Position numbers and translations under genes: made by a program. From positions 406,612-446,646 of the forward strand of contig CAJINV010000025.1 in the NCBI GenBank assembly GCA_905178155.1: 40,035 nucleotides of DNA, read 5' to 3'. Of the stretch, positions 4,382 through 39,788 are shown in pieces. Under the pieces are notes generated by a model. The model ran no database searches. It saw nothing but the letters and a program-made list of their open reading frames with translations, and was not told the origin of the DNA. The DNA comes from Amoebophrya sp. A120. Lineage: Eukaryota; Protista; Dinoflagellata. The first letter of the stretch is position 1; each line of letters starts with the position of its first letter.

Positions 4382-4590
4382 TATCGCAAGAAAGAACTGT
4401 TTCACTGTAAACCTGTGACGCAGAGAACGAAACACCAAAGTGTTTGTCTTGCTACACCTGCAACGCAATGGCTTTTTAAGCGTGTTTTCCCTTGGGAAAC
4501 GCGCATGGCAAATTTTCTGTGTCATGTGTAAGAAACTTGTGATGCAGATCTTGCAAAACCATCACAGTGAAGCAGTTTTTTCGTGGGATA
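4382..4590. mobile_element. TIR element, family D
   Basis: TATCGCAAGAAAGAACTGTTTCACTGT...ACAGTGAAGCAGTTTTTTCGTGGGATA; flanks AGTTG/TGTTG. Confidence 0.8.
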
Positions 4591-4650
4591 TGTTGATATA
4601 ATTCGTCGTCCGAGTGCCGTCGCGTGGAAGACAGCCCCGCGCACTTCCTC

Positions 4651-4974
4651 TATCAAAGTGAAAAAAGCCCCCACCCCATATCGGAAACGGAAGATTCGCG
4701 AATTTGTGATGCTGTATTTGAGTACACAAATCGACGTGTATTGCTAGAAGGCCAAGAGACGAAGCTGCGGCCTAAATTGCAGGCAATCTGTCATGCTGTT
4801 TCCCACTTCCAGTTGCCTCCTGTCATCCTGGCGCTGCAAGGCTTTCCCACGTTAGGCAGCACTACAGTCCGGCGCATCTTTTGCCTTCTAGCATCACAAA
4901 GCTGATTTGTGGCCACAAATCTGCATCACAGATTTCCGTTTTGATATGGGGAGGGGGCATTTTTAATTGTAATA
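4651..4974. mobile_element. TIR element, family B
   Basis: TATCAAAGTGAAAAAAGCCCCCACCCCATATC...GATATGGGGAGGGGGCATTTTTAATTGTAATA; direct repeat TCCTC. Confidence 0.9.
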
Positions 4975-5719
4975 TCCTCGAATGCTATGCGATAGGTATC
5001 AACCTTGAAACACTATCATGTCCGCAGCGTCTTGCCAAGGTCTTCGCCTATGTGGCACATGTGCCACCAGACGACTCCAGCACCGACGCAGAGCTTTGAA
5101 CCCCTCGCGGGGCTTCCCGCCCGTGGGCACTACGAAATTTCGTATAACGCCGTACCTGGTGGCAGGCACGCAAAAGCATCTGTCAGAGGGCATGATGCGT
5201 GATGTGTGAGACTACATTCAGCTTGCCGCTGAAGCTGCTTCACATCTAAAGACCGTGGCGCAAGTATCGATCGAAATGACGCTCGCAGCGAGAACCGCAT
5301 TGGTGCAGACATCAGGAACAATAAGGAATTGATTTTGCCGGAGCTCACACAGACGCCCGCCCCCCTAGGGGACGCGTAGGCTCCTCCAGGCTCCGACGTT
5401 CACATGTTCTTGAGATGATCGCGCGGTCCTCTTGAAAGTAGACCCAGCAAATTCACAGAGGGGCGCTACACACTTTTGCTCGTCCGCCGAAAGCGTTTGG
5501 GGGCGGGATTGCTTTATTCCCGCTGTCACGTTAATAAGTATCTTCGGACGTTTTTTGTCGGTTTTCTTTGTAAAAAAATGACGCACGAAGTAGAAATATT
5601 TGTCGCTCGCGCCGCCGTGGAGGGGGCACAACGGCGCGGGATATTCTTCATAACTATAGAGCAGTAGAAATTTTAGAAACGGAGAGACCAAAGGAACATC
5701 GTGCGAAAGGCAGTGCGCT

Positions 5720-6195
5720 AACTAGAATAGGGAATCCACAACGCCCCAAGGATTTTGCCTCTGAGGTAGTACATCCGTCGCCAGATAGGGTCCTGGGGGT
5801 TTCAGGTAGAAAGACAGCCAGGCAGAATGAAATATGACCCCTCGGTAGACATAGATCCCGGGGGTGGGAGATAAATCCCCAGGGAGAAAGACCCCCAAGT
5901 AGATAGATTCACAGGAGGGCTCCCAGGGACGGAGACACACCCCCAGGGACATAGATTCTCAGTGAGATGCTTAGACTTAGAACCCCAGGGAGATAGGTGC
6001 CCAGGGATTTAGTTTTCTTCTAGGGAAATAGCCCCCCAGGTAGATTGATAACATAGACCCCAGGCACTGACTTAGGTAAACTCCAGTGAAGTAGGGCCCG
6101 AGGCTGGCAAGCAGCCCCCCAGGTATGGGAAGGCTTTCAGCGGTAGAGCCCAAGGTATGGGCAGGCGTGCAGGTAGGCCCCCAGGTATGGGCAGG
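5720..6195. repeat. Degenerate CCCCAGG/ATAGAT-rich minisatellite tract
   Basis: Many CCCC(A)AGG and ATAGAT words; three copies of CCC.AGGTATGGG.AGG at ~6116-6195. Confidence 0.55.
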
Positions 6196-10314: not shown

Positions 10315-10452
10315 CATTCGCTCTCATCTCTGTATAGTATTTACCAATATGTTCATGCTTTTTATATTTTTGAAAAGATCTTATCATGTGCCTCGAAAGA
10401 AGTGATTTCACTACAGCTTTGATGTCGGTGCTTCATCATGTGGCCGCGCAGG

Positions 10453-10572
10453 AATGGACTGCAAAAGTATCGTACTAGTAGTAATTATCGCATTACAAAT
10501 TCACTCAGCATGACAAATGGAGTTTGTCAGTCTGTTTTCCCTTGGGATGGGGATTTGTAATGCATGACTGCG
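10453..10572. mobile_element. Truncated family C element (one TIR only)
   Basis: ATGGACTGCAAAAGTATCGTACTAGTA matches the family C terminus and interior; no partner TIR. Confidence 0.6.
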
Positions 10573-10989
10573 ATTTCAGTATAGCTCCGATGTCGGTCGT
10601 CCATGATGTGGCCTCGCAGGAGTATGCTTACTGGGCAAGAACAACCGTGCCGAAACTTACTGTTAAAAAGCTTGGGGACAACATCTACATCGGTGTGCTG
10701 TGGTGAGCTTCGGTTCAGTGTGCAACTAGTCGATATTATTTCAGTCGTCGTGCGCGCGGTCGTGCCATCTTATTTGATAAAATCTATCTATGAAAATAAG
10801 CTACATTGGAAAATAGTAGGCAAATTATAACTTCCAGGCCGCTGCTCCTCGCATGAAATGCAAATGTAGTTCTATATACCAACATTGTTTCTTGTTACAT
10901 CTTGAAGAACAACTAACTTACGTTTTCATCACCTGTACTTGAGTATTTAATTTATCTTTCCAAGAGTACAACTTCTATCTCGTGCTCGC

Positions 10990-13900
10990 ATGATCATGTT
11001 GCGCATCGGAGGACTCGCCGCGCTTTATTTTTTCAGCGGCCTCTCAACAACGTTTGCGCTCGGGATGAAGTTGTACGGCCAACGCATTTATCAAGTGCAA
11101 ATATGTCTGGGTCTGGAAGATTCTGCGACTTGTCATGCATGTCTGACATGACTCGAGAATCTGTGATGCGTGGGCACGAACCGGCTCTCCTATCTGTCAC
11201 GCAAAAACGCAGTTTCTCATGTGGAATACGCAACACGTACCCGCTCAAAAATTTGTCATGCTTGGCTGCGTATTGCAGTCCGGCTATCATCCAGTGTAGC
11301 ATTAAGTACAAGTTTCCAGACCCAGACATATTTGCAATTCATAGCATTAGCACCTTCAAGGAGCGTACTTTCCTGCAGCAGGAAGAACAAGAAGCACAAG
11401 GTCGGCTACACATGCTATTGCAAGGAAAAATCCCCCCTCCCCATTTTGAACGCGCATCCTGCTGAAAATTTGTGACGCAGATTTGTGACCACAGATCGCG
11501 TCTGTCTTGCAAGAAGGCACATTCAGGCCGTCCGCTCTTTTAGCAACGTTAAATAATAGAACGTTACTATGCAGGCGCTCTGTAGAAATGCTGTAAGCGT
11601 AAGGCCCACAGAGTGCGTAGCCGTCTACCATGCTAGGCGCCTACACCAAAAGACCCTCGCCTAGGCTGGCTTAGGATCTACTGCGTGCCGTCCTTTACTG
11701 CAATAGTACGCATCTGTTGACTTCTTGTGTACTCAAGTCCAGCATCAGAAATTTTGATTTGATATGGGGAGGGGGGATTATTTTTGGTTGTATTACAGGG
11801 ATCTCAACGGTGCTTGTGGATCTCAACGTTGAGACCTCACAGCTCAACGTTGAGAAATATATCTCAACGATCAGCAGTGGTTTAGGGTTTCGGGTTTAGG
11901 ATTTGGGGTTTAGGGTCGTCGGGCAGGGCAGCCGCGGCTGCCCTGCCCGACGATTCTCTCGTCGCCTCCCTGCGCTCTTGTTGCCCGGTACGTTGTGCGC
12001 GGCCCGTTGCCTTGTGTGCCCTGTGTCCCACTATGCGTGGAGCCTTCGCGCGTTTTTCTGAGTATCTATGAGCCCGCTCGCTGGCAGGACCTCTGAGAGG
12101 TTTGCTGCGGGGGCTTGGTGCGCACCTTCACGCCATGCAGTTCTTCTGTGTGCAGACCGTTGAGACCAGTCGTTGAGCTCATCGCGAATCCGTTGAGGCG
12201 TCTCAAAGCGTTGAGGCGCGACCGTTGAGATTCACTCGTTGAGATTCCTGTATAACAACCATTATTTTTCCTTTCGATGCATGCACGAACAGCATCACGA
12301 GTTTCTTGCTGATCCTTCTACTCCTTCTTGCCCAGACCAAGCACCGAGAGTGTTCGTGTATGGCTTTCCGCCCAAGGAGTTACTGAGTCATATGGTGTTC
12401 TCAAACGTTCCGTTCTCAGCTTCTGTTACATGATTTGTCATGCAAAATGACCATGAGCCGCCAAACGATCAAGCTGCTTCGCAAGACAAATTATCGCCGG
12501 GCTAAACAGCATCTAAATTATCCGTGCCAAATTTGTGATGCAAGACTTGCAAGCTTGCCCCTTTCCCTATTGCTGTTTTTGCATCACAAATTCGTGTAAC
12601 AGTTGAGGATGTAACATTTGAGAACTCCATAAGTCACGGGACACGTGACATCGTTTGGCGGGAGGATGCGTACTGCGAAAGAGAATTACCGTCTGGCTCG
12701 GCCGAGGAGCGCGATTGCGTCTTCGGTCCGGAGTTCTCCGTTACGATCGATTCGCCGCCAGCCAACGTGACGCTCCGTGCCACTGACCAGTTTCGAAATG
12801 GCCGCATCTTCCAATCCCGCCTGGTGCGCTCAGCTTGCAGAGTCACAGATCCCACACGCGCCGATGTGTTTTTCGTGCCCATTTGGCGCGAGAATTACAA
12901 AGTGAACCGCACCGAGTGCCCGACGGAAGACGAAGTTTTGGCTGCTCTTCCCTACTTGTCCGACGAAACGGCGAGCAAGCACTTTCTGATGTCTCCGCGT
13001 GTCGGGGGATTGTGGGATGACGTGTGCCCTTTTTGGAATAGCGAGAAGCCGCTGCTCCAGAAAATCCGAAAGATGGCCCTGGAAGACACAGCCTGCGGCA
13101 AGGAGGACCGGCCGGAGCGTTCTATTCCGTATCCGACCCTCGGTGGCGGTTTGAACAGTACGCAACTCGCCCACCTGTTCGCCGTCGCCGATAAAGCGCA
13201 GGAGACCGGCAGGGAATTTCTAGTCATGGCCACTCTGGGGAAACGCGTTGGCATATCAAAAGGAAAAATCCCCCCTCCCCACATCAAAACGAGATTTCTG
13301 ATGCTGGATTTGAGTGCACAAATCAGGTTTGTATTGCAGGAAAGCATTGCAGTCAGATCCCCAGGCTAGGCAGGGGCGTATGCGTCTAGTTGTTCAGCAT
13401 GGCAAGCGGCTCCCCTTTAGGCCCAATAGCATGACAAATCGCTTCCATAGTGTGGCGGAAGCTTCTGCCGTTGTCTTCTTGCAATACAAATGTGATTTGC
13501 GACCTCAAATCAGCAACGCAAATTTTCGAAAACATACCTTTTCGATATGGGGAGGGGGGATTTTTGCTTTTGATATGGCATCTCCTCTGCGCGCGTGCGC
13601 GACGTTTGGAATCAACACTGCCACGACAGCGACCATTGTATTGCGGTGGACCCCACGGTATCAAATGTAAAAATGTCTGGGTCTGGAAGATTCCGAGATT
13701 TGTCATGCAGTTTTTCCAAGCTCCACAAAGTCTGGAATGCAGGGCCTAGCATCACAGGTTCTGCAGCCCCTTGGTGATGCCCATTATGCATGAGAAATGC
13801 CCTCTGAGGATGCCGAGAAATGGGGACCTTTTGCAATTCATGCGAACACAGATTTTTGTATCATCCGCAACACGCATCACAAGTTCGCATTCTTCCAGAC

Positions 13901-15108
13901 CCAGACATTTTTACATTTGATACACGGTGGCAGGCATGCTCCCTGGGTTGGTCCAAGCCATGATGAAGTCCACCTTTTGCTTGCAGCCGGAAGGAGACAC
14001 TCCGTCTCGCAAGGGGATGCTGGACAGCTTGGCGCTGGGATGCATTCCGGTGCTTTCGTCCCGGAAACAGCACACGCTGTGGCGTTGGCATCTGGGAGAC
14101 CACGACTGGGAAGATTTCTCTGTGCTGGCGCCAGATTCCACGCAGGCGGCACACTCAACCACTAGGGGCAATAAACCCACCCAGCCGGGGCAAAACCACC
14201 CAGATACAACCCCGGGGCAAAACGACCACCCAGCCGACGATATCAAATGTAAAAATGTCTAGGTCTGGAAGAATGCAACTTGTGATGCTGCGTCTGCATT
14301 ATCCGAAAATCTGTATTGCATGAACAGCAGAAGAGGTCTGGTTTTGGCCACGGCGAGAGGGCATTTCTCATGCGGTATAGGCATCAGAAAGCCCTGCTCA
14401 CAAGACCTGTGATGCTAGGGCATGCATCGCAGACATCAGTCATGCAAAATGTGCATGACAAACCTTGCATCCTTGCAGACCCAGACATTTTTGCAGTTGA
14501 TAGGCGAGGACGGGGGGCAAAACCACCCAGCCGAAGAGGACGGAAGGCAAGACGAGCAAGACCAATCAACTGTCGGCAAGGGGCCAACATCGCAACGTTC
14601 GTTATCAAATGTAAAAATGTCTGGGTCTGGAAGATTGCCAGGTTTGTCATGCACATTTTGCATGACTCCTGATGTCTGTGATGCATGCCCTAGCATCACA
14701 GATTTTGTGAGGGCTTCCTGATGCCTATACCGCATGACAAATGCTCTTTCCGTGTAGCAAAACTTGGACTCTCTTTGCTGCTCACGCAATACAGATTTTT
14801 TTAGAATCCAAAAGCAGCATGACAAGTTGGATTCTTCCAGACCCAGACATTTTTACATTTGATGTTCGTGGTGCTGTGGCGATGGCGAGAAGAAATCCCC
14901 TCCAGCGGTGGCGCAGACGCTGATGGAAACTGGATCGTCCGGCGTCAACAACATCGTAGAGTTCCTGGAGACCATCAACGCGACCACGATCGCCGAACTG
15001 CGGGCCGGCGTGCGGAGTGCGCGGGAGAAAATCATCACGCACTGGACCGACACCGACTTGAACGACGCAATTACGGTCACGCTGAAAGCCATACAGGATG
15101 GCAAATGA
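10990..15108 (+). CDS. Exostosin-family (GT47) glycosyltransferase with N-terminal signal peptide/anchor, ~537 aa, split by 7 TIR elements. Exons 10990-11088, 11349-11415, 12285-12390, 12637-13253, 13581-13658, 13928-14240, 14508-14602, 14870-15108
   Basis: Joined exons total 1614 nt with no internal stop. They read MIMLRIGGLAALYFFSGLSTTFALG..RVFVYGFPP..TDQF..CRVTDPTRADVFFVP..SIPYP..STFCLQPEGDTPSRKGMLDSLALGCIPV..WEDFSV..NDAITVTL, which are GT47 motifs in the expected order. Confidence 0.92.
11089..11343. mobile_element. Family A TIR element acting as intron
   Basis: TATCAAGTGCAAATATGTCTGGGTCTGGAA...TTCCAGACCCAGACATATTTGCAATTCATA; repeat GCATT. Confidence 0.93.
11416..12279. mobile_element. 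Family B TIR element acting as intron; right TIR split by a nested element
   Basis: TATTGCAAGGAAAAATCCCCCCTCCCCAT...ATGGGGAGGGGGGATTATTTTT[insert]CCTTTCGATG; repeat CATGC. Confidence 0.9.
11786..12260. mobile_element. Nested non-autonomous element with 9-bp TSD (Mutator-like)
   Basis: TSD ATTATTTTT (11777-11785, 12261-12269). TIR GGTTGTATTACAGGGATCTCAACG / CGTTGAGATTCCTGTATAACAACC. Subterminal TCTCAACG/CGTTGAG repeats. Confidence 0.88.
12391..12631. mobile_element. Family E TIR element acting as intron
   Basis: TATGGTGTTCTCAAACGTT...AACATTTGAGAACTCCATA; repeat AGTCA. Confidence 0.9.
13254..13575. mobile_element. Family B TIR element acting as intron
   Basis: TATCAAAAGGAAAAATCCCCCCTCCCCACATC...GATATGGGGAGGGGGGATTTTTGCTTTTGATA; repeat TGGCA. 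Confidence 0.95.
13659..13922. mobile_element. Family A TIR element acting as intron
   Basis: Perfect TIR TATCAAATGTAAAAATGTCTGGGTCTGGAAGA; repeat CACGG. Confidence 0.96.
14241..14502. mobile_element. Family A TIR element acting as intron
   Basis: Family A TIRs; flanks GACGA/GGCGA. Confidence 0.92.
14603..14864. mobile_element. Family A TIR element acting as intron (interior opposite to 14241-14502)
   Basis: Family A TIRs; repeat TTCGT. Confidence 0.93.
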
Positions 15109-15149
15109 AGACGAAGAGGAGAAAATGTTTTAAATGAAAAACACGGCTA

Positions 15150-15406
15150 TATCAAATGCAACTATGTCTGGGTCTGGAAAGAAAGTTGGAACTTGTAATG
15201 CTAGCTTTACATTCCTGGAATATCTGTATTGCATAACCGACAAAAGGAGATTTTTGTCATGCAAAAACGCAGTTTCTCATGACATGCGGGCTGCCTATGA
15301 GAAAGTGCTCCGAAAAGTTGTCATGCTGCTCTGCATTCGGAACTGTTTCCATCATGCACATTTTAGCATCACAAGTTTCCAGACCCAGACATATTTGCAT
15401 TTGATA
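15150..15406. mobile_element. Family A TIR element downstream of the stop codon
   Basis: Family A TIRs; CGGCT on both sides, with one extra A on the left. Confidence 0.88.
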
Positions 15407-15444
15407 CGGCTTTACTGTCTACTACAACCCGTACGCCAGCGGCT

Positions 15445-15777
15445 TATGCTGAGGAAAAATCTCCCCTCCCCATATTGAAAGCGCATCCATCTGAAAACTT
15501 GTGATGCAGATTTGTGACCACAAGTGATCGCGTCTGTCTTGCAAGACGGCAACTTCAGGCTGTCCGGCACGTTATCCAGGCGATTTGTAATGGTGTAGGG
15601 CCTACAGGGCAGCCGTCTACCATCGACTAGGCGCCTATACCAAAAGGCCCCTGCCTAGGCTTGCGATCTGCGTGCAGTGCTCTACTGCAACACAAGTTTG
15701 ATTTGTCTTTGTGTACTCAAATACAGCATCACAAATATCGTTCTCGATATTGGGAGGGGTGATTTTTCCTTTTGATA
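15445..15777. mobile_element. Family B TIR element
   Basis: TATGCTGAGGAAAAATCTCCCCTCCCCATAT...ATATTGGGAGGGGTGATTTTTCCTTTTGATA; repeat CGGCT. Confidence 0.88.
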
Positions 15778-16389
15778 CGGCTCATCTACATCATCCTTGC
15801 GTTGCTGAGGACCTTAAGGCGTTGGATATCTATCACTGTCTGTTGGTTTTACTTATTATCATTGACGTATTTTGAAAAAATTGCTTGTAACAACAAAACT
15901 TCTTCGCTCTACCAGTTCTGTTTTTCTCAAGAAAGAGCACAAAGTGGCTCAGTCTTCTATCTGGTATTTTTATTCATCTTGAAATAGCGCTAGAATGGTC
16001 AGCACACGAGAGAAGAAAACCTTCACCCGGATCATTCCGTGTATCCAATATGAACAAACAACCAAACAGCTTTTCATTTGCATTTTCTTCTATTGATCAT
16101 CATGGTTCGAATTCAATTTTGTATGGTCTTGACCGACCAGCATGTAGTTTTTGCTTTATTAATAATTCGGAACTACTAGCCTGGTCGTCGTTGGGGTCGC
16201 GACCACATTCTACTTTCACTAATTGTAATTTTTGTACTAGTTTCGGTTTATCTTCATTCCGACCGCATGATAGAAGTACACATAAACAAAATGCAAACCT
16301 GTCTATGGAAGCGTCAGGATTGAAATCGTCAAAGTTGAATTTGAAAAAAAAAAAATGCATAAAATGCAACCCACAAAGCGCCTGTCTTG

Positions 16390-16988
16390 CAGAGTAGGCA
16401 AGGGAGGCATATTGCAAGCCTGTTGAGGGGTAGAAATAGAGCTGCTGAAGTAGCATGACAAAAGGCGTCTTCCTTTTACCCAAACAGCATTACAAACTGG
16501 ACTTAGACACCACCAAAACTTGTCATGCGCCATTTCTAAACTGGGCTCCAACTGGCATCCATTTTATGCATGACGAACTATTTCAACTCTGACAAATTTC
16601 AAACCTGACACATCCATATTGTCTGGCTCTGAAAATAAGAAGTTGTGAAAAATTCGTAGAACAGCAAGATGGTTTCTGCTACACGGAGTGAGAGGCATTT
16701 GTCATGCGGATTAGGCATAAGGAACTACAAGCATACCTAATTCATAGAGTGTGACAGACCACGACGACATCAAACTGACCGCTACCAGAAATAAAAGTAG
16801 CCAGTGGCATGATGAGAAATTCATTTTGCAGGGCGTCCATTTTTAGCCTCTACGAAAACAAGATGTGAATGAATACGCATACGCACGAAACTCGGCAAGC
16901 ATTTCCTGCATGACAGAGGTTGTCTGTCTTGCTTGTCTTTCATCAGAGCGTGTACTTCTAAGTGTAACACTTCTTATTTCTCACGATA
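16390..16988. mobile_element. Cluster of eroded A-, B- and D-like element remnants
   Basis: TGTCTGGCTCTGAAA (~16620), A-like interior GGCATTTGTCATGCGGATTAGGCAT, and D-like end GTAACACTTCTTATTTCTCACGATA (16988); no matched pairs. Confidence 0.5.
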
Positions 16989-29800: not shown

Positions 29801-30607
29801 TCAGATTTAGCATGACAAGTTGCATCCTTCCAGACCCAGACACTTTTACATTTGATACGAGAAGCTGCGCCACCAAAGCAGCGGGTTTAACTGGCGCAAT
29901 ATCCAGTGCAAATCATATGTCCAGGTCTGGAAAGTTGGAACTTGTCATGCTAGCTGTACATCCCTGGGTGGAAATCTGTATTGCATACCCAACACAAGTC
30001 GCAGCCTCTCTTTTCATGCGACAAAACGTAGTTTCTCGTGCGGACCACTGCACTACGAGAAAGCGTTTTAGCAAGTTGTCATGCTGGGGCGCAATCGGAC
30101 GTGTTTCCATCATCTACATTGATTTTAGTATCACAAGTTCTCTCCAGAGGACCCAGACATGCTTGCAATTGATACGCAACGCTTTGGTGCCTGTCATCGG
30201 ATTCAACTTCGCCAATCTGCTCTTCGTCTACCCCTTTGCCGTCAATGGGACCTATCCATTGCAAATATATTTATCTGGGTTGGGAAAAGTGGACCGTGTG
30301 TTGCATGTCTTGCATTCTTGAAAACTCTGTGTTGCACAGCCAGCAAAGTCGCTACTTTTTCGTCACGCAAGAACCACGCAGTGCGTCATGCGTGCTACGC
30401 ATCAGACGGCGTGAACTGAAGTCGTCATGCTTGGCTGCACTTGAAAGCGCCAGTGACTTATCCATACTTCAGCATCACAAATTTCCAGAGGATCCAAACA
30501 TATTTGCAATGCATAGGGTCTACTTCTTTGCCATGCCGGCAGTGACGGCCGGGTTCGTTACCGGCAGTTTGGGACTGATCCTTTGGCACGACTTGTTTTA
30601 CCTGTGA
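17816..30607 (+). CDS. Hypothetical protein ~722 aa with hydrophobic (predicted TM) C-terminal segments, split by 15 TIR elements. Exons 17816-17906, 18174-18213, 18378-18652, 18924-19019, 19349-19810, 26789-26925, 27195-27230, 27492-27872, 28122-28218, 28481-28551, 28819-29027, 29298-29304, 29516-29585, 29863-29899, 30180-30252, 30521-30607
   Basis: Each element+5-nt deletion keeps one open frame (2169 nt total): MAAAKANANMARLH...FFGRIGLFFTFCYSTVAYL...NALVPVIGFNFANLLFVYPFAVNGTYFFAMPAVTAGFVTGSLGLILWHDLFYL*. The join across 19811-26788 is the weakest, so this could be two genes. Confidence 0.72.
17907..18168. mobile_element. Family A TIR element acting as intron
   Basis: Family A TIRs; repeat GCGGA. 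Confidence 0.92.
18214..18372. mobile_element. Family C TIR element acting as intron
   Basis: TATGAACTGCAAAAGTGTC...GATACTTTTGCACAGGATA; repeat TTACC. Confidence 0.88.
18653..18918. mobile_element. Family A TIR element acting as intron
   Basis: Family A TIRs; repeat CCCGC. Confidence 0.92.
19020..19343. mobile_element. Degenerate family A element acting as intron
   Basis: TAGGAAATTGCAAATCTCTCTGAGTCTGGAAGA...CAGAC..CCAGA..TTTGCAATGCATC; flanks CGCGG/GGCGT; frame restored. Confidence 0.65.
20311..20550. repeat. CAA-derived 11-bp minisatellite (CAACAACAACG and variants)
   Basis: Directly visible; produces spurious TTQQQRNNNA ORFs in all frames. Confidence 0.92.
20621..26671. repeat. ~6-kb satellite array: 29-bp monomer AAAAGTAGAGATATTCGGGGCGGTCAGGC in a 6-monomer 178/184-bp higher-order repeat
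   Basis: Five 29-bp monomers plus one 33-bp CGCAGCGGCCGAACAAGT variant per unit. The GTCTCC marker recurs every 184 bp from 24481 to 25769. Confidence 0.97.
26926..27189. mobile_element. Family A TIR element acting as intron
   Basis: Family A TIRs; repeat TGCAG. Confidence 0.93.
27231..27486. mobile_element. Family A TIR element acting as intron
   Basis: Family A TIRs; repeat TCACG. Confidence 0.93.
27873..28116. mobile_element. Family D-like element acting as intron
   Basis: TATGGAAAGAAAAAAATTCGTCGC...GTGACAAATTTTGTTTCGTGCATA; repeat TTGCG. Confidence 0.8.
28219..28475. mobile_element. Family A TIR element acting as intron
   Basis: Family A TIRs; repeat GGAGC. Confidence 0.92.
28552..28813. 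mobile_element. Family A TIR element acting as intron
   Basis: Family A TIRs; flanks CGTTT/CTTTC (the duplicate copy near 39834 has CGTTT). Confidence 0.9.
29028..29292. mobile_element. Highly degenerate family A element acting as intron
   Basis: TATCCCTCGCAAACATA..TCTGGATCTGAGAGA...TTTGCAATGCATA; 265 bp (family length); flanks GAGCG/GAACA; frame restored. Confidence 0.62.
29305..29510. mobile_element. Family D element acting as intron
   Basis: TATGGAGAGAAAAAAGTTTGTCACAGTCAC...GTGATCGTGGCGAACTTTTTTCTTTTCATA; repeat AGGTC. Confidence 0.87.
29586..29857. mobile_element. Family A TIR element acting as intron
   Basis: Family A TIRs; repeat CGAGA. Confidence 0.92.
29900..30174. mobile_element. 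Family A TIR element acting as intron
   Basis: Diverged family A TIRs; repeat CGCAA. Confidence 0.87.
30253..30515. mobile_element. Family A TIR element acting as intron
   Basis: TATCCATTGCAAATAT...ATATTTGCAATGCATA; flanks GGACC/GGGTC. Confidence 0.82.
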
Positions 30608-31673
30608 GGATGAAAAAATAGATAGGGAAAAAATAACAGCGTAGATGTAGTACGTCTTCCACATCAAGGCTCGCTGCAGCAAACGGTAGTGACCCCTTCT
30701 GGTCAAAGTCAAAGTGAAGTCGTCCACGGTTCAAGTGGTCCGTGCAGCAAAATATTAACATAGAGTTCCTTTCATTTTACGCCGTACTTGTAAAAGTGTC
30801 AATCGATATCGATGGTACTGTTGTACATGGTGCAGTTCTTCTTTCCTCCACCTGTGTTCTTCGAACGATATTAGAAGCGTGGTTATTCTAAGAGTCTTCC
30901 TGAAGATTGCCTTGCAACAATGATGCTTTCAACATTCAAATCGGATCCACCCTGCCTGCAACATCAGCATCACCTGGCAGTATTAAAAAACAAAGATATC
31001 ATCATCATCACTCACAACCACAAGAAGGATCATCATCACGTAGCGCAGCAGCGCAGGCTTTCTAAGCACCATGGAAGCCGTGCCAAGTCCGCCTTTCATC
31101 AACATCACACTCGCAATTCAACAATCTTTTACAACCGCCCGGCGTTACGCCCGTGTCTACTCTTCACTTGCATGCACATGTTGTAGCTCTTGGTAGTAGT
31201 TCTTGTACAACATATACGAAGAGGAAACTTGGGCAATGTGTAGAAAAAGTACTTTCATGCACCCGACTCCGCCACCTTTTTTTTCCACTACTTGTTCTAG
31301 ATTTTCTTCCTATTTTTCCACGCACAAATCAAAACGAAAACATAATTGGTTGATGCTAGAATTATGCACAGTCGAATCCAGTGGTATAATCTTTTAGTAA
31401 CGAATGATGTACATCACAGGCCGGCAACGAAGATCTCGATCTCGAAAGTTTGTTTGGAAAGGTGGACATCAATAACTCTGAAACAAGGAAGAACGACTTT
31501 TAGGCAAGGCGGAGGTGTAGTTGTACTTGTACTTGACGGGGAAAACATTGAAAATGTCCGTGTGACGTTGATTGTCGCCGTCGGTACTCAGTTGATGTAA
31601 TACGAAAGCCAAAGAAATTCTGCTGAAGAACCGCACAAAGAAATTGATTCATCTTCGCGACAAGATCAAGAAC

Positions 31674-34600
31674 ATGAGTGCTGTGGAATCGACAGTACCC
31701 GCCAACAAGAGCTGCAAAATTAAGCCGCTCCCGCAAGGTTTGCGTCGCACGAATGCGAAAAAGCCGCCGCCGCCCGCTGCAAAGCATAACCTGTCGCTCC
31801 ACTATCCTGTGCAAAAGTATCGCACTCGTAGTAATTGCAGTCATGCATTACCAATCTCGTTCCCAAGGCAAATCAGCATGACAAATTGCATTTGTCATGC
31901 TGAGGGAATTTGTTATGCAATTTATACTAGTACGATACTTTTGCAGTTCATATCCACGTGACTCTGCCAACTACTACGAGGAGGAACATCACTGCCCCCG
32001 CTGCACAAAATCAACAACCGGCGACTTCGGTTGTCGTGCCGGCCGCGGCTGAAACTCAAACACAAACTACAGCTGTTGTGAACAATAATAATCAAACTAC
32101 GACTACTTCTTCTACTACTACTGCAACGACGAGTACGGCTTTCTCGAAGGCGACATCCAAGGCTGCCGGAGGGCCACCAAGTCTTGGAACGGTAGCTGCA
32201 CCCGCCCAACCCGAAGTAGAACTACCCGCCGAGCCCATTCCCGCCGTCTCCAAGGCCCGGGGCCCGCCTCCGCCGGGAGATGAAAACAGTACTAAACCGT
32301 CTACTTCCGACGGAGCAGCTGCACTAGGTGTAGACAACGACGACCTGCAGGCGCTACCCAAGGCGGTGCCGAAGGCGGGCTATCAACTGTAAATATCGCT
32401 CTGGGTCTGGAAGATTAAAACTTATCATGCTCAATCTGAATGATGCAAAAATCTGTGATATTGCGTGAGTACCAAAAGCCGTCCGCTTTTGACCAAATTG
32501 AGAGGGAGTTCCTCATGCAGGAAACGCATGATAGAGACCGCAAAGAATCTGTCATGCTAGGTCTCGCATTGCAGACCTCATGGCTCATGCAAAACGTGCA
32601 TGGCAAGTCTCAGAATCTTCCAGACTTAGACATATTTGCACTGCATACGGGCGGTTTGGTCGCGAAGCTCGCCGCGGTGGGCGTGAACGTGGAGCAAGCT
32701 GTATGCAAGAGAAAAAAGAAAAACTGTGTAAGCGTGACTTTGTGTTGCACACGCACGCAAAGCAATTCTCACTTGCTATGCTCAACATGCATTTTTACAG
32801 GCTAAAGTAGTCTCATATGTGTTTACTTTTATTTCATCGCGCACTATAATTTCTTGCGCACTAGACAGGCTTTCCATTACCTTTTTATTTCACTCGGGGT
32901 CCCTTTTGACCCCGAATAGATTTGAAAAGCCGTCCATGCCGTGCGGGTTCGAAAGGGGGTGCCTGGGTTCAAATTTTTATGGTTTTTGCTTGACAAACTC
33001 AATTATCTCAAGCTTTTCTTATTTCGCACCTGTTTCCGTCACCTCCTTAATTCATTCGGGGTCTCTTTTGACCCCGAATAGATTTGGTCCGCCCATACCG
33101 TGCGGGTTCGAAAGGGAATGCCTGGCTTCAAGTTTTTAGGGTTTTTGCTTGACAAACTCAATTATCTCAAGCTTTTCTTATTCCGCACCTGTTTCCGTCA
33201 CCTTCTTATTTAATTCGGGGTCTCTTTTGACCCCGAATAGATTTAAGAATCTGTCCATACCGTGCGGGTTCGAAAGGGAATGCCTGGCTTCAAGTTTTTA
33301 GGGTTTTTGCTTGACAAACTCAATTATCTCAAGCTTTTCTTATTCCGCACCTGTTTCCGTCACCTTCTTATTTAATTCGGGGTCTCTTTTGACCCCGAAT
33401 AGATTTAAGAATCTGTCCATACCGTGCGGGTTCGAAAGGGAATGCCTGGCTTCAAGTTTTTAGGGTTTTTGCTTGACAAACTCAATTATCTCAAGCTTTT
33501 CTTATTCCGCACCTGTTTCCGTCACCTTCTTATTTAATTCGGGGTCTCTTTTGACCCCGAATAGATTTAAGAATCTGTCCATACCGTGCGGGTTCGAAAG
33601 GGAATGCCTGGCTTCAAGTTTTTAGGGTTTTTGCTTGACAAACTCAATTATCTCAAGCTTTTCTTATTCCGCACCTGTTTCCGTCACCTTCTTATTTAAT
33701 TCGGGGTCTCTTTTGACCCCGAATAGATTTAAGAATCTGTCCATACCGTGCGGGTTCGAAAGGGAATGCCTGGCTTCAAGTTTTTAGGGTTTTTGCTTGA
33801 CAAACTCAATTATCTCAAGCTTTTCTTATTCCGCACCTGTTTCCGTCACCTTCTTATTTAATTCGGGGTCTCTTTTGACCCCGAATAGATTTAAGAATCT
33901 GTCCATACCGTGCGGGTTCGAAAGGGAATGCCTGGCTTCAAGTTTTTATGGTTTTTGCTTGACAAACTCAATTATCTCAAGCTTTTCTTATTCCGCACCT
34001 GTTTCCGTCACCTTCTTATTTCATTCGGGGTCTCTTTTGACCCCGAATAGATTTAAGAGTCTGTCCATACCGTGCGGGTTCGAAAGGGGGTCCCTGGGTT
34101 CACGTTTTTATGAGTTTTGCTTGACAAACTCAATTTTCTGAGGCTTTTCTTAGTCCGCATCTGTTTCCGTCACCTTCTTATTTCATTCGGGGTCCCTTTT
34201 GACCCCGAATAGATTTGGTCCGCCCATACCGTGCGGCTTCAAAAAGGGATGTCTGGGCTCAAGTTTTTGTAGTTTTTGCTTGACAAACTCAATTATCTCA
34301 AGCTTTTCTTATTCCGCCCCTGTTTCCTTCCCCTTCCTATTCCATTCGGGGTCCATTTTGACCCCGAGTAGATCTGAAAATCCCTCCATACCGTGCGGGT
34401 TCGAAACGGGATGCCTGGGCTCAAGTTTTTATAGTTTTTGCTTGACAAGCTCAATCTTCTGAAGCTTTTCTTCTTCCGCACCTGTTTCCGTCCCCTTCCT
34501 ATTTAATTCGGGGTCCATTTTGACCCCGAGTAGATCTCGAAATCCCTCCATACTGTGCGGGTTCGAAAAGGGATGTCTGGGCTCAAGTTTTTGTAGTTTT

Positions 34601-37600
34601 TGCTTGACAAACTCAATTATCTCAAGCTTTTGTTATTCCGCCCCTGTTTCCGTCGCCTTCTTATTGCGCTCGGGGTCTTTTGTGACCCCGAATAGATTTG
34701 AAAAGCCCACCACGCCGTGCGGGTTCGAAAGGGGATGTCTGGATTTGAGTTTTCGTGATAGTTTTTAGTATTGCTATAGTATACTACGCTAACACAATTT
34801 CATTCCTGGATGAGCTAACGAGGTAGGGACCGTGCAGCAGCAGCTCGGAGATGGCTCGTCTGGCGCGGGGGCCACCGGACGACAAGGACAAGATCCATCT
34901 GCGCAGCAGGAAGCGGACCGTAATACCAGCGCAGCAGCCGATATCACGGGAAAAAAGTGTTACAGTTACACATTTGTTGGAGTTTCTGCATCGCAAAGTT
35001 GCTCGACATGGCCAAGAAAACCTGTGATGCGCAGACTACAAGGGAAAACACGAGTGAAATGAGGCTGGCAACCATTTCCTGCATGACAAAGGTTGTCTGT
35101 CTTGCTGGTCTTCCATCAGAGTGTGTAACTGTAACATTTTTTTCGCAGGATAGCCGAGGACAACCTGGCGTTGTTTCGGAATATCACCAGACAGGTCACC
35201 ATATCCTGTGCAAAAGTATCGCACTCGTATAAATGCAAGTCATGCATTACAAATCTTGTTCCCAAGGCAAATCTGCATTACAAATTTTATTGGGTAAAAA
35301 GGACAAATCCCAAGAAGACTAGCAAAATCTCAAGAAGAAATGGACAAATCTCAAGAAGAAATGGGCAAATCTTAGGGTTTGGGTTTGGGGTCTAGGGTTT
35401 GGGGTTTCTGGTCGTCGGCCAGGGCAGCCGCCGCCGGCCGGCCGGCCGGCGGCGGCTGCCCTGGCCGACGACTCTCTCTTCTCGTTTTTGGAAGGTGGCG
35501 GCCCCGCGCCCTGCCCGCCTTCGTGTTTGTTCTGTCGCTTCCTTGGGGTTCTCCTGGTTGGCGCTGGCCAGCTCCTTGGCCGGCGGGCCTCGGGATTGGG
35601 GCACACAGCGCAGCCGCGCAGAACTTGGCGGCTTGGTCCCTCACCCGGGTCCCCCTCGCAGGGAGACCGCGGACGGGCCGCGGGGTGTCCTTGTGTATTT
35701 TTCCAGGCCAGGATGCCGTCGTGCATCATGTTATGCATGATGGAGTGTTGCTTGCAAAAAAACACAGTAGATTCAGAAGAACCGAATGCCCGCGAATAGC
35801 TTTGACGTGGCCCCGCACACCGTCGTGCATAACGTTCTCGCTCGCCAAAACATCTCCTTCTCTCCGCCCTCTGCTTTCCATCTGCTTTTCGCCTTCTCTC
35901 TGCCGTCTTCTTTCGATCTGCTTTTCGCCTTTTCTTTGCCCTCTTCCTCGATTCGATTCCAACGTAGAATAATGCGTTTCCACAGGCAGGAAGTTTTCAG
36001 TGAAAACTTCCTGTCTGTGAACTATACCATGGTGTATAAAGTTCTCCCTGAAAAATCCGTAACCATTCTTCTTGAGATTTTTAACAAGTCAAGCAATTTG
36101 AAAATTAAGCATTTTCTTTTTGGGGTGGGTTCTTCTTGAGCTTTTCTTCTTGAGATTTGTCCACTTTAACCAATTTTATTTCTCATGCTGAGGAAATTTG
36201 TCATGCATTTATACGAGTGCGATACTTTTGCAGTCCATACACCAGACGCGCCACGTCGGGGCTATGACCTGCTCAAACGTTACAACCTCAAACGTTACTC
36301 AATAGGATTTGGGTTTTGTATTGCATGACGAGCATGACAGACTCGGACAGCATTCCATTTTCTGCAATACAAATTTCGCCAAATTGTAGTGCGGATTGGG
36401 GCGACTCCAGAACTTGTCATGCGCATCAATCCTACGAGAGTCGGCTACTACGTAATGCACTTCTTGCAGCACACATTCCAGATTCTATGATAACCGATTT
36501 GAGATTGTAACACCTGAGCAGGTTATAGGGGCTGTACAAGCATGAGGAGTGGCTGGCCCGGCTATCAAATGTAAAAGTGTCTGGGTCTGGAGGATTCTGA
36601 AACTTGTCATGCATATTTTGCATGAGTCGTGATGTCTGTGATGCATGCCCTGGCATCACAGATTTTTTCTGGGCTTCTTGATCTTGATGCCTAGTCCGCA
36701 TGACAAATGCCCTCTCTCCGAAGCAAAAAATACACTCATTTTGCTGCTCATGCAATGCAGGTTTCTTTGGAATCCAAATGCAGCATCACAAGTTGCATTT
36801 TTCCAGACCCAGACACTTTTGCACTCGATACCGGCGGCATGACGACAAGGTCCGACGGATCGAGGAAGAAAAGCGCCAGGCACGTATCCTGTGCAAAAGT
36901 ATCGTAAAAGACTTCTACGTAGAAATCGCATCACAAATAGAAGCGCAGCATGACAGCGATAGAACTTGTAATTCTGATTTAATACCTCGGGAAGAAGATT
37001 AACATTTGCAGCCACGCATGTTCGCGATGTATTATTGGAACGAGCTGTACGATAGTACTTTTGCAATGCATAGCCCGACGCGCGGAACGGTGGTACAATA
37101 ACGATCGTAACAGAGAGGGCCGCGCCAGAAGTCGGCGAAACGACTCGCGAGGACGCAGGAGCTACGGGCGGGGGAATAAAAAAGATGACCGGGACGACCA
37201 CCGGGACAAAAATGTGAGCAGGAGCAGGGTACGGCGATTGTCCAGTCGCGATCGTCGGGACTCACGAGGCGGAAAAGGACGGGACAGGTATACTGAAGAT
37301 AAAGCAAGAGAACTTTGTTTTTCTTCTTATAAAAACCGTATATTTATTGTCATGCCTAAAAGTAGAAAGAGAAAAAGAACCAGTCATGCGTGATCTCAAC
37401 TACTTCTACACTTAGAATTTGTACTACTTATCACAGAAGCAGCTACCGCGATACAACGGCCCGAACTACTGGTGCAAACTCCCGCCGTCGTGAGGAAGAT
37501 GACAGCAGGGATGACAACTACCACAACGACAACAAAAACCGCTGCTCCCGGAGTCGTGGACGTGGTGGTCGTGGTGGCGGTGTGAATGGCAATGACAACG

Positions 37601-38794
37601 GTAAAAAAAAGGATAAAAAGCGAAACTACTCCGAGGACGAAAGCGAGAAGAATTACTCTACCAGCAAGAAGAACAAGAAACCTGCTCCCTCTTCGTCCAT
37701 ATGCATTGCAAAAATGTCTGCGTCTGGAAGATTGGTGCGGTTTGTCATGCTTGTCTGGCATGACCAAAAAATTTGTGATGCGTGTCAACGAAGAGACCCT
37801 TTTGCCTGTCATGCAAAAACGCAGTTTGTCATGCGAGAAACGCAATACAAGGAAGTGCAGATATTTCTCATGCTTGGCTGTGCATTACAGAGCATTCACT
37901 ATTCCCAACGCAGCATTACAAGTTTCCAGACCCAGACACTTTTGCATTTGATAGTCCACCGACGAGAGCAAGAAAAGAAGTGGCACTGGTGCTCCCGCGG
38001 ACAGGTAGAAGGATCTTAAGGAAAACTGTTTCTGGGTTTTATTTAACTCTGTCATGCAGAAATTGAACGTAGACAACGGCCCAATTCTAAGCATAATGTC
38101 GCTTGTCAACATCCGATGACTAGAGAATAACAAAAACCCTAGGAAAAAACTCGTGCACTATCAAATCGCTCCTGTGTACAAATACCTGTGCGTCCTGGCA
38201 AACACTTTTGCAGTCATGATCTAATGCTGAGAGCGCTTGAAGCGCTATAATCCGCCGAAAAAAAGAACAAAACTCTGGAAATTTCAACTTCTCTTCTGGG
38301 TATTAAACTAACAGGTCGACCAAAAAGCACAAGAAGGAAAAAGTAAGCAGGACATCAACATCTGACAGCCGGGAACAGAGTAACAGCAAGCGGAAGGGCC
38401 GTGGGGGAGACAAGAAGCAGAGTTTATTGTGAGGAAACGTTTTCGTGATCCCTCCTCCGCTTTTTGAAAAGGTGGTCTAGTACAACTTGTGAAAATTTGT
38501 GATGCTGATTTATTATCTGTGGCCACAAAGCGCACGCCTGTCCGTCTTGCACGAGGTTCCTGAGTTGTAAACCGCAAACATCCAGCATACACAAGTTTGC
38601 GTTTGAGTACGGGGAAGTAGATGGGGGATCAGCATTTTTGATTTTGATACAGCAGCAAGCAGAAAAACGACAGTCGAGGCCGAGATGACAGTCGAGGACG
38701 GGACGACAGTCGAGGCCGAGACGACAGTCGAGGCCGAGATGACAGTCGAGGACGAGATGACAGTCGAGGACGGGACGACAGTCGTGGGAGATAA
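31674..38794 (+). CDS. Hypothetical low-complexity protein ~544 aa (T/P/A-rich N-terminal half, R/S/D/K-rich C-terminal half ending in DSRGRD repeats). Exons 31674-31802, 31958-32380, 32653-32701, 34818-34941, 35158-35201, 36245-36262, 36533-36562, 36836-36884, 37078-37287, 37437-37699, 37959-38004, 38315-38424, 38655-38794
   Basis: 1635 nt open after removing 10 TIR elements (+5 nt each) and two GT-AG introns. Start codon uncertain, as the frame is open back to ~31596. Confidence 0.75.
31803..31952. mobile_element. Family C TIR element acting as intron
   Basis: TATCCTGTGCAAAAGTATCGCACTCGTA...TACTAGTACGATACTTTTGCAGTTCATA; repeat TCCAC. Confidence 0.92.
32381..32647. mobile_element. Family A TIR element acting as intron
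   Basis: Family A TIRs; repeat CGGGC. Confidence 0.9.
32702..34812. mobile_element. Family D-like element expanded to 2.1 kb by a satellite, acting as intron
   Basis: TATGCAAGAGAAAAAAG...ACACAATTTCATTCCTGGATG; flanks AGCTG/AGCTA; removal gives in-frame EQA-DEVGTVQQQ. Confidence 0.72.
32865..34770. repeat. 162-bp (159-bp variant) tandem satellite, ~12 copies, each with hairpin ATTCGGGGTC-N6-GACCCCGAAT
   Basis: GACAAACTC marker at 32992, 33151, 33313, 33475, 33637, 33799, 33961, 34123, 34282, 34444 (variant) and 34606. Confidence 0.96.
34942..35152. mobile_element. Family D TIR element acting as intron
   Basis: TATCACGGGAAAAAAGTGTTACAGTTACA...TGTAACTGTAACATTTTTTTCGCAGGATA; repeat GCCGA. Confidence 0.93.
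35202..36239. mobile_element. Family C TIR element acting as intron, hosting a nested element
   Basis: TATCCTGTGCAAAAGTATCGCACTCGTATAAATGCA...TGCATTTATACGAGTGCGATACTTTTGCAGTCCATA; repeat CACCA. Confidence 0.92.
35292..36171. mobile_element. Nested non-autonomous element with 9-bp TSD (Mutator-like)
   Basis: TSD AATTTTATT (35283-35291, 36172-36180). TIR GGGTAAAAAGGACAAATCCCAAGAAGA / TCTTCTTGAGATTTGTCCACTTTAACC. Subterminal TCTCAAGAAGA repeats. Confidence 0.88.
36263..36527. mobile_element. Family E TIR element acting as intron
   Basis: TATGACCTGCTCAAACGTTACAACCTCAAA...TTTGAGATTGTAACACCTGAGCAGGTTATA; repeat GGGGC. Confidence 0.9.
36563..36830. mobile_element. Family A TIR element acting as intron
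   Basis: Family A TIRs; repeat CCGGC. Confidence 0.93.
36885..37072. mobile_element. Family C TIR element acting as intron
   Basis: TATCCTGTGCAAAAGTATCG...TACTTTTGCAATGCATA; flanks GCACG/GCCCG. Confidence 0.83.
37288..37436 (+). other. Putative canonical GT-AG intron
   Basis: ACAG|GTATAC...TCACAG|A; AT-rich; joins two RS-rich ORF pieces in frame. Confidence 0.65.
37700..37953. mobile_element. Family A TIR element acting as intron
   Basis: Family A TIRs; repeat GTCCA. Confidence 0.92.
38005..38314 (+). other. Putative canonical GT-AG intron
   Basis: ACAG|GTAGAA...CTAACAG|G; removes an in-frame TAG and continues K/R/S-rich coding. Confidence 0.62.
38425..38649. mobile_element. Degenerate family B element acting as intron
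   Basis: TATTGTGAGGAAA..CCCTCCTCC...GGGGGATCAGCATTTTTGATTTTGATA with B-type interior; flanks GAGTT/CAGCA; the +5 rule restores the frame. Confidence 0.65.
38669..38791 (+). repeat. 18-bp coding tandem repeat, ~7 copies, encoding DSRGRD
   Basis: GAC AGT CG. GG. (C/A)G. GA(C/T); all variation between copies is synonymous in this frame. Confidence 0.9.
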
Positions 38795-38817
38795 AAAGAC
38801 ACTGCATCTTCAGCATT

Positions 38818-38985
38818 TATCCTGTGCAAAGTATCGTACTCGTGAAAGGTAAGAATTGCAATGATGCATGGCCAAACTTTTTTCCATATGCAATTCACAA
38901 TGGCAAAGAACGGAAGAACTCCATTTGTCATGCTGTAGCAAAAATGCAATTCCTATTAGCACCTACGACACTTTTGCCATCCATA
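38818..38985. mobile_element. Family C element, degenerate, just downstream of the stop codon
   Basis: TATCCTGTGCAAAGTATCGTACTCG...TACGACACTTTTGCCATCCATA; no matching flank repeat. Confidence 0.65.
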
Positions 38986-39788
38986 AGCGGTGTACAACCA
39001 GCACAATCTCGACGTCCAGAACTCGTTTGCACAATCTCGGGCCGCTCGAGACGACCGAACGACCAACTACACCTTTTTTCCAGAAGAAGTAGAAACACGA
39101 TTAGTTCTGTGCCGGTTGCATCGAAGAAGATGGAAGCAGGTCTCACCGATAATTGCGTGAAGATCTCATATGCAAATCGGCCATTAGCTAAGTTACCCGG
39201 AAGAGAATTATTCAACAGAGATTTTTTCAACAAGGAAAAGTTTTGTTGGATTGGCGACTACACCTCGATTTTTTCATATCACTTTATTTCATCATCAAAC
39301 AACCAAAAGCACGATACAAGGTTTTCGACATCCACCAAATATACGACTAGTATTTCGAACCGCGACCATAACTTTGATGTCCGCGGCGCTGCTTGGTTTT
39401 GTCGAACCGAAGAAACCACAGCGGATGTATTCTTTTTGCTGCGAACTTCATGAAGCTGTCGAACGAATCAATGCACAATCCGCATGACAAAGTGCTTGCG
39501 GCAAGATGAGCTGTGGAATTTGTGTTGCAAAAAACCGCGATGTTCTAACCGGCCGGGGAAGAGAAATAGATGATGATGAGATGAAGATAAAAGTCGATGT
39601 GAGGACGAAGCGATGCTGTTCTTTTCTACCAATCAATTTTTGATGTTTGCCGAATCGAAAAGATGTTGATAAATTGCTGCTTGTGAAACTCAAACTGAGT
39701 GCTTGTCTTTTTTGAATTTGTATTGCGTTTTTCCGACATCACACGATGGAAATGTTGGAATGAAAATTTGAGTTTCAAACAACCACCA

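Follow-up and report, generated by a model that had tools for sequence, protein, structure and literature searches.

What is the short word that recurs inside the terminal inverted repeat (TIR) elements of this locus, and what reads it? Amoebophrya has tens of thousands of non-canonical introns, and the 40,035-bp stretch of Amoebophrya sp. A120 analyzed here (the window; contig CAJINV010000025.1, positions 406,612 to 446,646) holds 34 hand-checked TIR elements with a total length of 9,968 bp. The initial annotation had assigned such elements to unrelated families sharing the word TGT(C/G)ATGC, often in inverted pairs, and had proposed a binding site for a transposase or a removal factor, or a stem-extending pairing element, that defines one superfamily.

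Elements and their families

With 360 further elements, for which a second assembly was added, the set comprised 394 elements. Over the two assemblies 17 multi-copy families were recognized, and one TIR is common to 17 copies in the window. Common to all families are TAT(C/G) ends and a 5-bp duplication, and in each an A-run occupies positions 11-15; the element finder demanded a [TC]AT end but not the A-run. The ends thus show the pattern published for A120 introners, inverted TAT followed by about seven variable bases and at least three A. An exact 5-bp duplication accompanies 321 of the 394 elements and none has one of 6-8 bp, while shuffled loci (280 kb) gave no element call. Families differ from one another at TIR positions 16-28, though they have the internal site in common. 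The description of the families as unrelated was therefore overstated with respect to their common ends, A-run and duplication, although it holds for the motif-masked interiors, which are mostly unalignable (z > 4 in 6 of 136 family pairs; median z 0.55). Compared by their described features, namely ends, duplication, removal from transcripts and families, the elements correspond to the A120-type introners already published for Amoebophrya.

Inspection of the reading frames of ten elements longer than 400 bp revealed no obvious transposase frame, and none of the elements examined was autonomous. The TIR pattern was not found in viral contigs, and an Rfam search of the window gave no match. A ladder of about 53 bp in the lengths of the families is weak (p 0.03; 0.08 without two families) and absent in 17 single copies.

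Below, elements skipped in probable transcripts are marked as such (runs X1, X4 and X5 were taken as RNA by guess only), and internal sites are given with their strand. Family 0 is found at 13659–13922 (13701+, 13733+, 13749-, 13788-, 13874-; skipped), in reverse orientation at 14241–14502 (14281+, 14312+, 14366+, 14408+, 14424-, 14453-; skipped), and at 14603–14864 (14645+, 14677+, 14693-, 14732-, 14786-, 14817-; skipped), 17907–18168 (17949+, 17997-, 18036-, 18090-, 18121-), 18653–18918 (18693+, 18724+, 18783+, 18822+, 18870-), 26926–27189 (26967+, 26999+, 27015-, 27039+, 27054-, 27108-), 28219–28475 (28261+, 28276-, 28293+, 28309-, 28343-, 28428-; record length fits skipping), 28552–28813 (28592+, 28623+, 28677+, 28716+, 28732-, 28764-; record length again fits skipping), 29586–29857 (29628+, 29676-, 29721-, 29775-, 29810-), 32381–32647 (32423+, 32511+, 32550+, 32566-, 32598-) and 36563–36830 (36605+, 36637+, 36653-, 36698-, 36752-, 36783-). 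Family 1 occupies 11089–11343 (11131+, 11162+, 11195+, 11254+), 27231–27486 in reverse (27264+, 27311-, 27350-, 27370-, 27403-) and 37700–37953 (37743+, 37774+, 37807+, 37827+, 37866+, 37882-, 37913-). Family 2 includes 18214–18372 (18250-, 18268-, 18285+, 18316+) and 31803–31952 (31845-, 31876-, 31893+, 31911+; skipped in X4 record 20); a long element of this type with a nested insert lies at 35202–36239 (strict core 36199+) and a degenerate one at 38818–38985 (38926+). Family 3 is located at 34942–35152 (34988-, 35023+, 35081-, 35098+). Family 4 comprises 4651–4974 (4705+, 4789+, 4891-, 4923-; skipped), 13254–13575 (13297+, 13330+, 13397-, 13429-, 13481-, 13513-) and 15445–15777 (15500+, 15535+, 15586+, 15687-, 15726-; skipped in X1), and a long element of its type with a nested insert spans 11416–12279 (skipped).

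Further families represented in the window are family 7 at 16304–16618 (16383+, 16453-, 16487-, 16521+, 16568-; skipped), family 8 at 4382–4590 (4414+, 4445+, 4503-, 4538+; skipped together with 5 nt in contigs of X1/X4), family 9 at 15150–15406 (15194+, 15225+, 15255+, 15319+, 15366-; skipped in X1), 29900–30174 (29943+, 29977+, 30077+) and 30253–30515 (30328+, 30423+, 30472-), family 10 at 12391–12631 (12436+, 12481-, 12534+, 12581-; skipped), family 13 at 29305–29510 (29349+/29350-, 29368-, 29385+, 29427+, 29443-, 29459+) and family 14 at 36263–36527 (36317+, 36332-, 36364-, 36415+, 36466-). Single-copy introners lie at 27873–28116 (27927-, 28018+; skipped in X4 record 18) and 36885–37072 (36928-, 36948-, 36967+), and an old degenerate introner at 29028–29292 has no internal site scoring 9 bits. 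Removal of elements restores the reading frames of two plus-strand host genes: five elements with one duplication each in 12280–15107 (483 aa; a weak exostosin/GT47 match, PF03016, E 1e-4, under Pfam's cut-off), and eleven elements in 26780–30608 (403 aa).

An internal motif common to all families

The strict word TGT(C/G)ATGC has 89 matches on both strands of the window (26+19+29+15), 80 of them inside the 34 elements, compared with a mean of 1.8 and a maximum of 6 in 200 dinucleotide shuffles of the same elements. The reported enrichment across families is thus borne out, as is the rarity of the word in exons (one strict match in 4,466 bp of reconstructed exon), and the positions singled out earlier are right to within one base (12436, 13701, 14281, 31893 and 35023). 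The word itself is present, but the true motif is wider and more degenerate: built with the enlarged set, it reads aaAYYTGTVWTGCa (14.4 bits), and T never occurs at position 4. All 17 multi-copy families carry it, with 2.0-7.6 sites per element versus 0.05-0.3 in shuffles. The core presumably resembles plant RY, ApiAP2 or RBFOX words.

Five of the nine strict matches outside elements of the window fall in uncalled element fragments detected by BLAST (10508, 16908, 19247, 38498, 39482); the other four, at 16700, 19802, 37348 and 38050, have no assignment. The density of strict matches beyond called elements is 0.32/kb versus 0.06/kb by chance, an approximately 5-fold excess. Among 96 such matches, 51 belong to clusters of at least three sites, and 44 isolated matches were counted in ~355 kb.

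Spacing and orientation of sites

Same-strand sites are often 30-33 bp apart: 20 such pairs occur in 13 of 17 family maps, against 3.1 pairs under the null, and none of 5000 permutations reaches 20 (p<0.0002). Without two families having the same TIR, 17 pairs remain in 11 of 15 families. The best period for same-strand pairs is 10.4-10.5 bp (R 0.34; 0.23 at 11.0), and the distances of convergent pairs peak at 15-17, 37, 47, 58 and 68. The spacers that follow the two sites of a pair are 32% alike versus 29% across families; therefore tandem duplication, considered as a source of the 31-32 bp spacing, was rejected. Measured from the element end, the nearest inward sites fall preferentially at 33-35, 41-45 and 55-56 bp (Rayleigh p 0.012 for a 10.5-bp period), a modest effect with p 0.04 and a best period of 9.5 when the two families are dropped; outward sites have no phase relative to the end.

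The number, order and orientation of sites vary by family, while the word and the spacing persist. Inverted pairs, described earlier as frequent, characterize only part of the families: in families 0, 7, 10, 13 and 14 the outermost sites are for the most part inverted and mirror-placed (93 of 128 in family 0), whereas they are on the same strand in every copy of families 5 (17/17), 8 (10/10) and 11 (7/7).

Constraint on the motif

The core changes at 0.17x the spacer rate on internal tree branches (0.13-0.21) and at 0.44x on tips (0.39-0.49), in families that are not phylogenetically independent and with redundant sites within elements. These rates support purifying selection on the core during spread of the elements. 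Free decay after insertion would require 2.5% divergence, and mismatches between duplications give ~2% per copy (4.1% per pair). Comparison of old with young copies gave a ratio of 0.64, with a wide interval of 0.13-1.44.

Removal from transcripts and RNA folding

Ten joints that skip an element together with 5 nt were identified in X1 and X4 contigs, the probable RNA, and none in X5. Hence the elements resemble published A120 introners also in their removal from probable transcripts at non-canonical boundaries. The raw RNA run X8 contributed only 24 partial reads, and X2 and X3 do not cover the exons of 26700–32800. In the same interval X6 has only end-to-start joints, with unknown letters between, and these were not read as circles.

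The element at 29028–29292 is still skipped despite having no motif site, as inferred for this one element from record length. On transcripts, family 0 elements occur in both orientations (21 versus 24), as does the motif (369 versus 323 in 152 elements with inferred strand). Both observations argue against a general role of the motif in recruiting a removal factor. Compared with shuffles, element interiors show better folding (mean z -2.3), also with motifs held fixed (mean z -1.6; z below -2 for 12 of 32). Cores are predicted to be paired more than spacers (0.73 versus 0.59); in predicted ensembles, however, a core has another core as its partner in only 37% of cases. The variable base shows no covariation between mirror sites in family 0 (0.41 observed, 0.41 expected; n=100) or family 1 (0.05 versus 0.04; n=44), and mirror cores are fully complementary in 32 of 100 and 1 of 44 cases, respectively. 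No excess of stem G-U pairs as a sign of RNA-level selection was detected (69 G-U versus 62 A-C mismatches). With no compensatory change, and with same-strand outer copies in three families, stem extension by pairing is not supported as a general role.

Possible role of the motif

We consider the motif, common to 17 of 17 multi-copy families, likely to be a double-stranded DNA binding site by which a mobilizing protein complex recognizes the element. The protein would be a candidate transposase or its DNA-bending partner; since no binding protein was identified, the word transposase stands for an inferred activity. In this model, several protein units would occupy the sites along a single helical face; the element, 110-330 bp long, would be bent and its TAT ends brought together, and cutting and insertion would follow with a 5-bp stagger. 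Elements retaining sites would continue to be copied, the sites being probably dispensable once inserted, and RNA removal would rely on the element ends and their stem. One common site would explain the spread of many families with different TIR bodies in one genome. The proposal of a binding site defining one superfamily thus keeps its mobilization side, given the occurrence in all multi-copy families, the three-turn spacing and selection during spread; its removal side is not supported as a general role.

It is unlikely that the motif is bound by a host chromatin or architectural protein outside transposition, with site-bearing elements tolerated or packaged better. Helical spacing suits any double-stranded DNA binder, the site is common while TIR positions 16-28 vary by family, and residual matches exist beyond called elements; but the core is most constrained on internal branches, which represent the spread of the elements, few isolated matches lie outside elements, and inward sites keep preferred distances from the ends. 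Quite unlikely, in our judgment, is that the motif is read on RNA, either bound by a splicing factor or extending the terminal stem that joins exon ends. The skipping of elements in probable RNA contigs, the folding of interiors with motifs fixed, the mirror-placed outer sites of five families and the reduced core rate on tips are what such a reading would lead one to expect, and the higher pairing of cores suits an RNA or hairpin role. Nevertheless, mirror cores lack compensatory change and are mostly not fully complementary, core-to-core pairing is predicted in a minority of cases, three families have same-strand outer sites, both orientations are transcribed, G-U and A-C mismatches are balanced, a motif-less element is skipped, and it is hard to see what a spacing fixed at 31-32 nt would mean for single-stranded RNA. 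We regard as very improbable a functionless relic of a single ancestral element behind all families: the common end motif and duplication length, and the interior similarity kept in a few family pairs, agree with it, but the internal-branch core rate within families contradicts it, masked interiors are mostly unalignable, and sites differ in number, order and orientation while word and spacing persist.

Within the preferred reading of a DNA site for mobilization, a bolder version may be entertained only tentatively: one DNA-binding protein would mobilize essentially all A120-type introner families by reading both the TAT end and an internal code in phase with the helix. The TIR bodies could then diverge freely, since their sequence would not matter for their service as stems in ruler-type splicing, where the cuts would fall 1 nt ahead of the element and 4 nt beyond it. 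If true, a DNA code for jumping would be split from an RNA shape for removal, and TAT ends together with 5-bp duplications would mark the elements as a new integrase-like superfamily. A 14-bit site with fixed three-turn spacing offers a concrete bait for protein pull-down, a signature to find autonomous elements and group many families, and a means to separate jumping signals from splicing signals.

Comparison with known systems

The accessible text of Farhat et al. 2021 (PMC7789003) describes A120 introners of ~240 nt in many families, with inverted ends of TAT, seven variable bases and an A-run, 3-5 nt direct repeats, non-canonical boundaries and co-oriented genes, all as found here. Its authors found no A120 transposase and dispute mobilization by such an enzyme as a general mechanism, which weighs against our preferred reading. 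The text describes only 8-20 nt inverted repeats and direct repeats and, figures aside, no shared internal motif or spacing. Nor was a report of this motif or its spacing found in the literature searched, those figures again aside; the elements themselves are already known.

In the consulted part of Gozashti et al. 2025 (PMC12130899), A120 introner family 38 is a TIR DNA element of ~808 bp with '5-bp TSD, TA/TA termini' and integrase-like homology. It is similar by description to the elements here in duplication and termini, and its integrase-like homology counts in favor of the mobilization reading, whereas no coding element was found here; among the first 41 of 58 A120 rows, other families have lengths like ours. 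Integrase-like transposases also characterize IS3EU/GingerRoot, with TA..TA termini and usually 6-bp duplications, and Ginger2/TDD, with 5-bp duplications in TDD-4 and TDD-5 and Ginger ends TGTNR (portions of PMC10045372, PMC6839031, PMC2836005). Our elements share the TA..TA termini of the former, but not its duplication length (5 bp in 321/394), and the 4-5 bp duplication of the latter, but not its termini, having TAT ends; as described in these portions, neither group combines TAT ends with a 5-bp duplication.

The sites found here form a subterminal array, in that a short site is repeated near and inside the ends, in both orientations and under selection. In hAT, CACTA, piggyBac, Mu and Tn7, several short transposase sites inside the ends, in both orientations, are needed for transposition. 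The introners likewise have several short sites in both orientations inside their ends. Unlike those arrays, however, the sites of putative binding described here are common to families with different TIR bodies, and they fill a non-autonomous element of 110-330 bp that doubles as a spliced intron.

Motif content of the elements

From 4.3 kb onward, reading frames in the window are broken up by short elements with inverted ends, 34 of which were catalogued using a script and visual inspection. At their ends, TAT(C/G) is followed by a variable stretch of several bases and then by an A-run, with a 5-bp duplication on the flanks. The introner elements themselves are already known; they match the A120-type introners of Amoebophrya described in PMC7789003, and the window's assignment to this organism was inferred from that description. 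The strict motif TGT(C/G)ATGC has 89 matches in the window, of which 80 lie inside the 34 elements (9,968 bp; shuffles yield 1.8) and one in 4,466 bp of exons, in agreement with the rarity in exons noted in the initial annotation.

The sample was enlarged by scanning a metagenome collection with the end pattern of the commonest family, and is thus skewed toward this family. At least 171 loci, whose contigs have a single prefix in common, carry the window's families (identity up to 97%). Our finder identified 360 distinct elements in these listed loci, against zero calls in 280 kb of shuffled sequence from the loci; an exact 5-bp duplication is present in 321 of 394 elements from the window and the loci listed. 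After 10 elements longer than 400 bp were left out, clustering sorted the remaining 384 into 34 groups, of which 17 are multi-copy (at least two members). A family-weighted matrix that started from the strict motif settled on aaAYYTGTVWTGCa (14.4 bits). Matches to this matrix, termed sites, number 2.0-7.6 per element in all 17 multi-copy families (0.05-0.3 in shuffles), and 14 of the 17 single-copy groups possess at least one. Partial or degenerate elements with motif copies, missed by the finder, are located at 19021-19340, 10454-10575, 16620-16960, 38440-38650 and 39480-39830.

Relatedness of the families

All families share TAT, C/G at position 4, an A-run at positions 11-15 and the duplication length, whereas end positions 16-30 differ across groups and agree between both ends of one family. 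With motifs and ends masked, similarity above z = 4 was found in 6 of 136 family pairs (median z 0.55). Judged by sequence, the families therefore constitute one superfamily with diverged interiors. The initial annotation had likewise united the motif-sharing families; its description of them as unrelated suits most interiors but not the common ends and duplication length.

TIR positions 4-7 change at 1.5-1.7 times the spacer rate in all families, with no correlation between the left and the right end; error-prone repair of the ends or an exchange of ends may be the cause. Positions 10 and 14, in contrast, are correlated. The element L003:1570-1795, in a locus of the second assembly, combines a left end of family-4/12 type with a right end of family-15 type and has no duplication, and it is possibly a recombinant between families.

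Spacing and helical phase of the sites

Using one map per family, we found 20 same-strand pairs at distances of 30-33 bp, spread over 13 of the 17 families. The expectation under random placement is 3.1 pairs, and the observed number was attained in 0 of 5000 permutations; 17 pairs in 11 of 15 families remain without families 1 and 9. A second same-strand site occurs 31 or 32 bp from a strong site in 9-11% of cases versus ~1% elsewhere, and the best period of same-strand distances is 10.4-10.5 bp. Distances peak at 15-17, 37, 47, 58 and 68 bp for convergent sites and at 17, 35, 48 and 66 bp for divergent ones. Of 35 inward sites, 19 are no more than 56 bp from an end, at distances of 33-35, 41-45 and 55-56 bp, and the set of 35 as a whole is phased to the end at 10.5 bp (p 0.012; p 0.04 without families 1 and 9); outward sites have no phase relative to the end. 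Tandem duplication was ruled out as the source of spacing, as the spacers between sites are not duplicated units. By established DNA geometry, repeated same-face spacing is a mark of a protein on one face of B-form DNA, and the pairs, the period and the inward phase would be the signature of such binding.

Role of the motif

On these sequence patterns, the most probable reading is that the mobilising complex binds these sites in double-stranded DNA. The bound complex would align the TAT ends for insertion with a 5-bp stagger; the candidate binder is the transposase itself or a host partner common to several transposases. Alternatively, a host chromatin protein without any link to mobility might occupy the motif, which seems unlikely to us. 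That the motif is a relic is very improbable: in trees built for the 11 largest families, change at the six core positions proceeds at 0.17 times the spacer rate along internal branches and at 0.44 times along tips. Were sites free to change once inserted, the tip value would call for 2.5% divergence after insertion. Mismatches within the duplications point to about 2% per copy. The figures may fit selection during spread followed by release; tips, however, also include unsampled history.

A role in RNA, as a splicing or stem element, is improbable, although element interiors are predicted to fold more stably than their shuffled versions (mean z -2.3; -1.6 when the motifs are kept fixed). This folding counts against the DNA-binding reading; the excess is putatively owed in part to long inverted arms in some families. 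Stem-extending mirror copies predict covariation of the motif's variable base, and none was observed in family 0 (0.41 versus 0.41 expected; 100 of 128 copies scored) or family 1 (0.05 versus 0.04; 44 of 54). The outer sites are on the same strand in every copy of families 5, 8 and 11. Covariation and orientation thus lend no support to the stem-extending role proposed in the initial annotation as the motif's general role. Among the 152 elements whose strand was inferred, copies are transcribed in either orientation, with a 14-to-4 skew in family 1. Stem mismatches have no G-U excess. In a single case, the element 29028-29292, with no site and a 2/5 duplication match, is still skipped as judged by record length.

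Removal from probable transcripts

Deletion of each element with one duplication copy restores a 483-aa frame in the host gene at 12280-15107 (+ strand) and a 403-aa frame in that at 26780-30608 (+ strand). Exact skipping of the element plus 5 nt was found at 10 of 15 joints displayed in contigs of sequencing runs X1 and X4, which are RNA by guess only, and at none of these 10 in run X5, whose contigs extend into elements. The length of X4 record 18 is exactly that with all seven further elements in 28212-30520 skipped (75 and 194 letters). At three imperfect-duplication elements (15145-15411, 28547-28818 and 30248-30520), contigs retain the first four letters from the left copy and the fifth from the right; one element fixes both and the other two are compatible. 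This suggests cleavage 1 nt upstream of TAT and 4 nt downstream of ATA, independent of sequence.

An X4 contig stops at 32700 and resumes at ~34817. The 2.1-kb gap (32703-34810) is probably one large intron, given its TAT/CAT-type ends, the contig continuation and the 162-bp tandem array inside.

Other repeats

Two long introners have a nested insert (11879-11960 and 35370-35472) in which telomere-like TTTAGGG-type repeats precede a GC-rich, near-perfect hairpin; TTAGGG is also present in long elements of loci L024 and L070. A 29-bp satellite (20624-26671) lies between a left end of family-4 type at 19811 and a C/G-run end at ~26760-26783 that matches it; the whole stretch from 19811 to 26783 may be a 7-kb introner swollen by the satellite. 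An element end and the next exon are duplicated with a few differences at 28783-29020 and 39801-40035, likely a paralogous gene copy. Tandem arrays of 19 bp (816-983), 201 bp (2508-3474) and 18 bp (38667-38784) are unrelated to the motif.

Comparison with known systems

Site arrays within transposon ends are of a known kind. In the text covered, the literature on introners, Amoebophrya and dinoflagellates or on the likely superfamily does not mention the internal motif or its spacing; neither do the passages covered of PMC7789003, PMC12130899 and PMC11453091, nor the supplementary files searched for the motif string. IS3EU/GingerRoot have similar TA..TA ends and TDD-4/5 a similar 5-bp duplication; however, the window elements differ from each in one defining feature and were therefore not filed under either. 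A published A120 introner family (PMC12130899) combines a 5-bp duplication and TA..TA ends with integrase-like homology. This family is the best lead to the mobilising protein.
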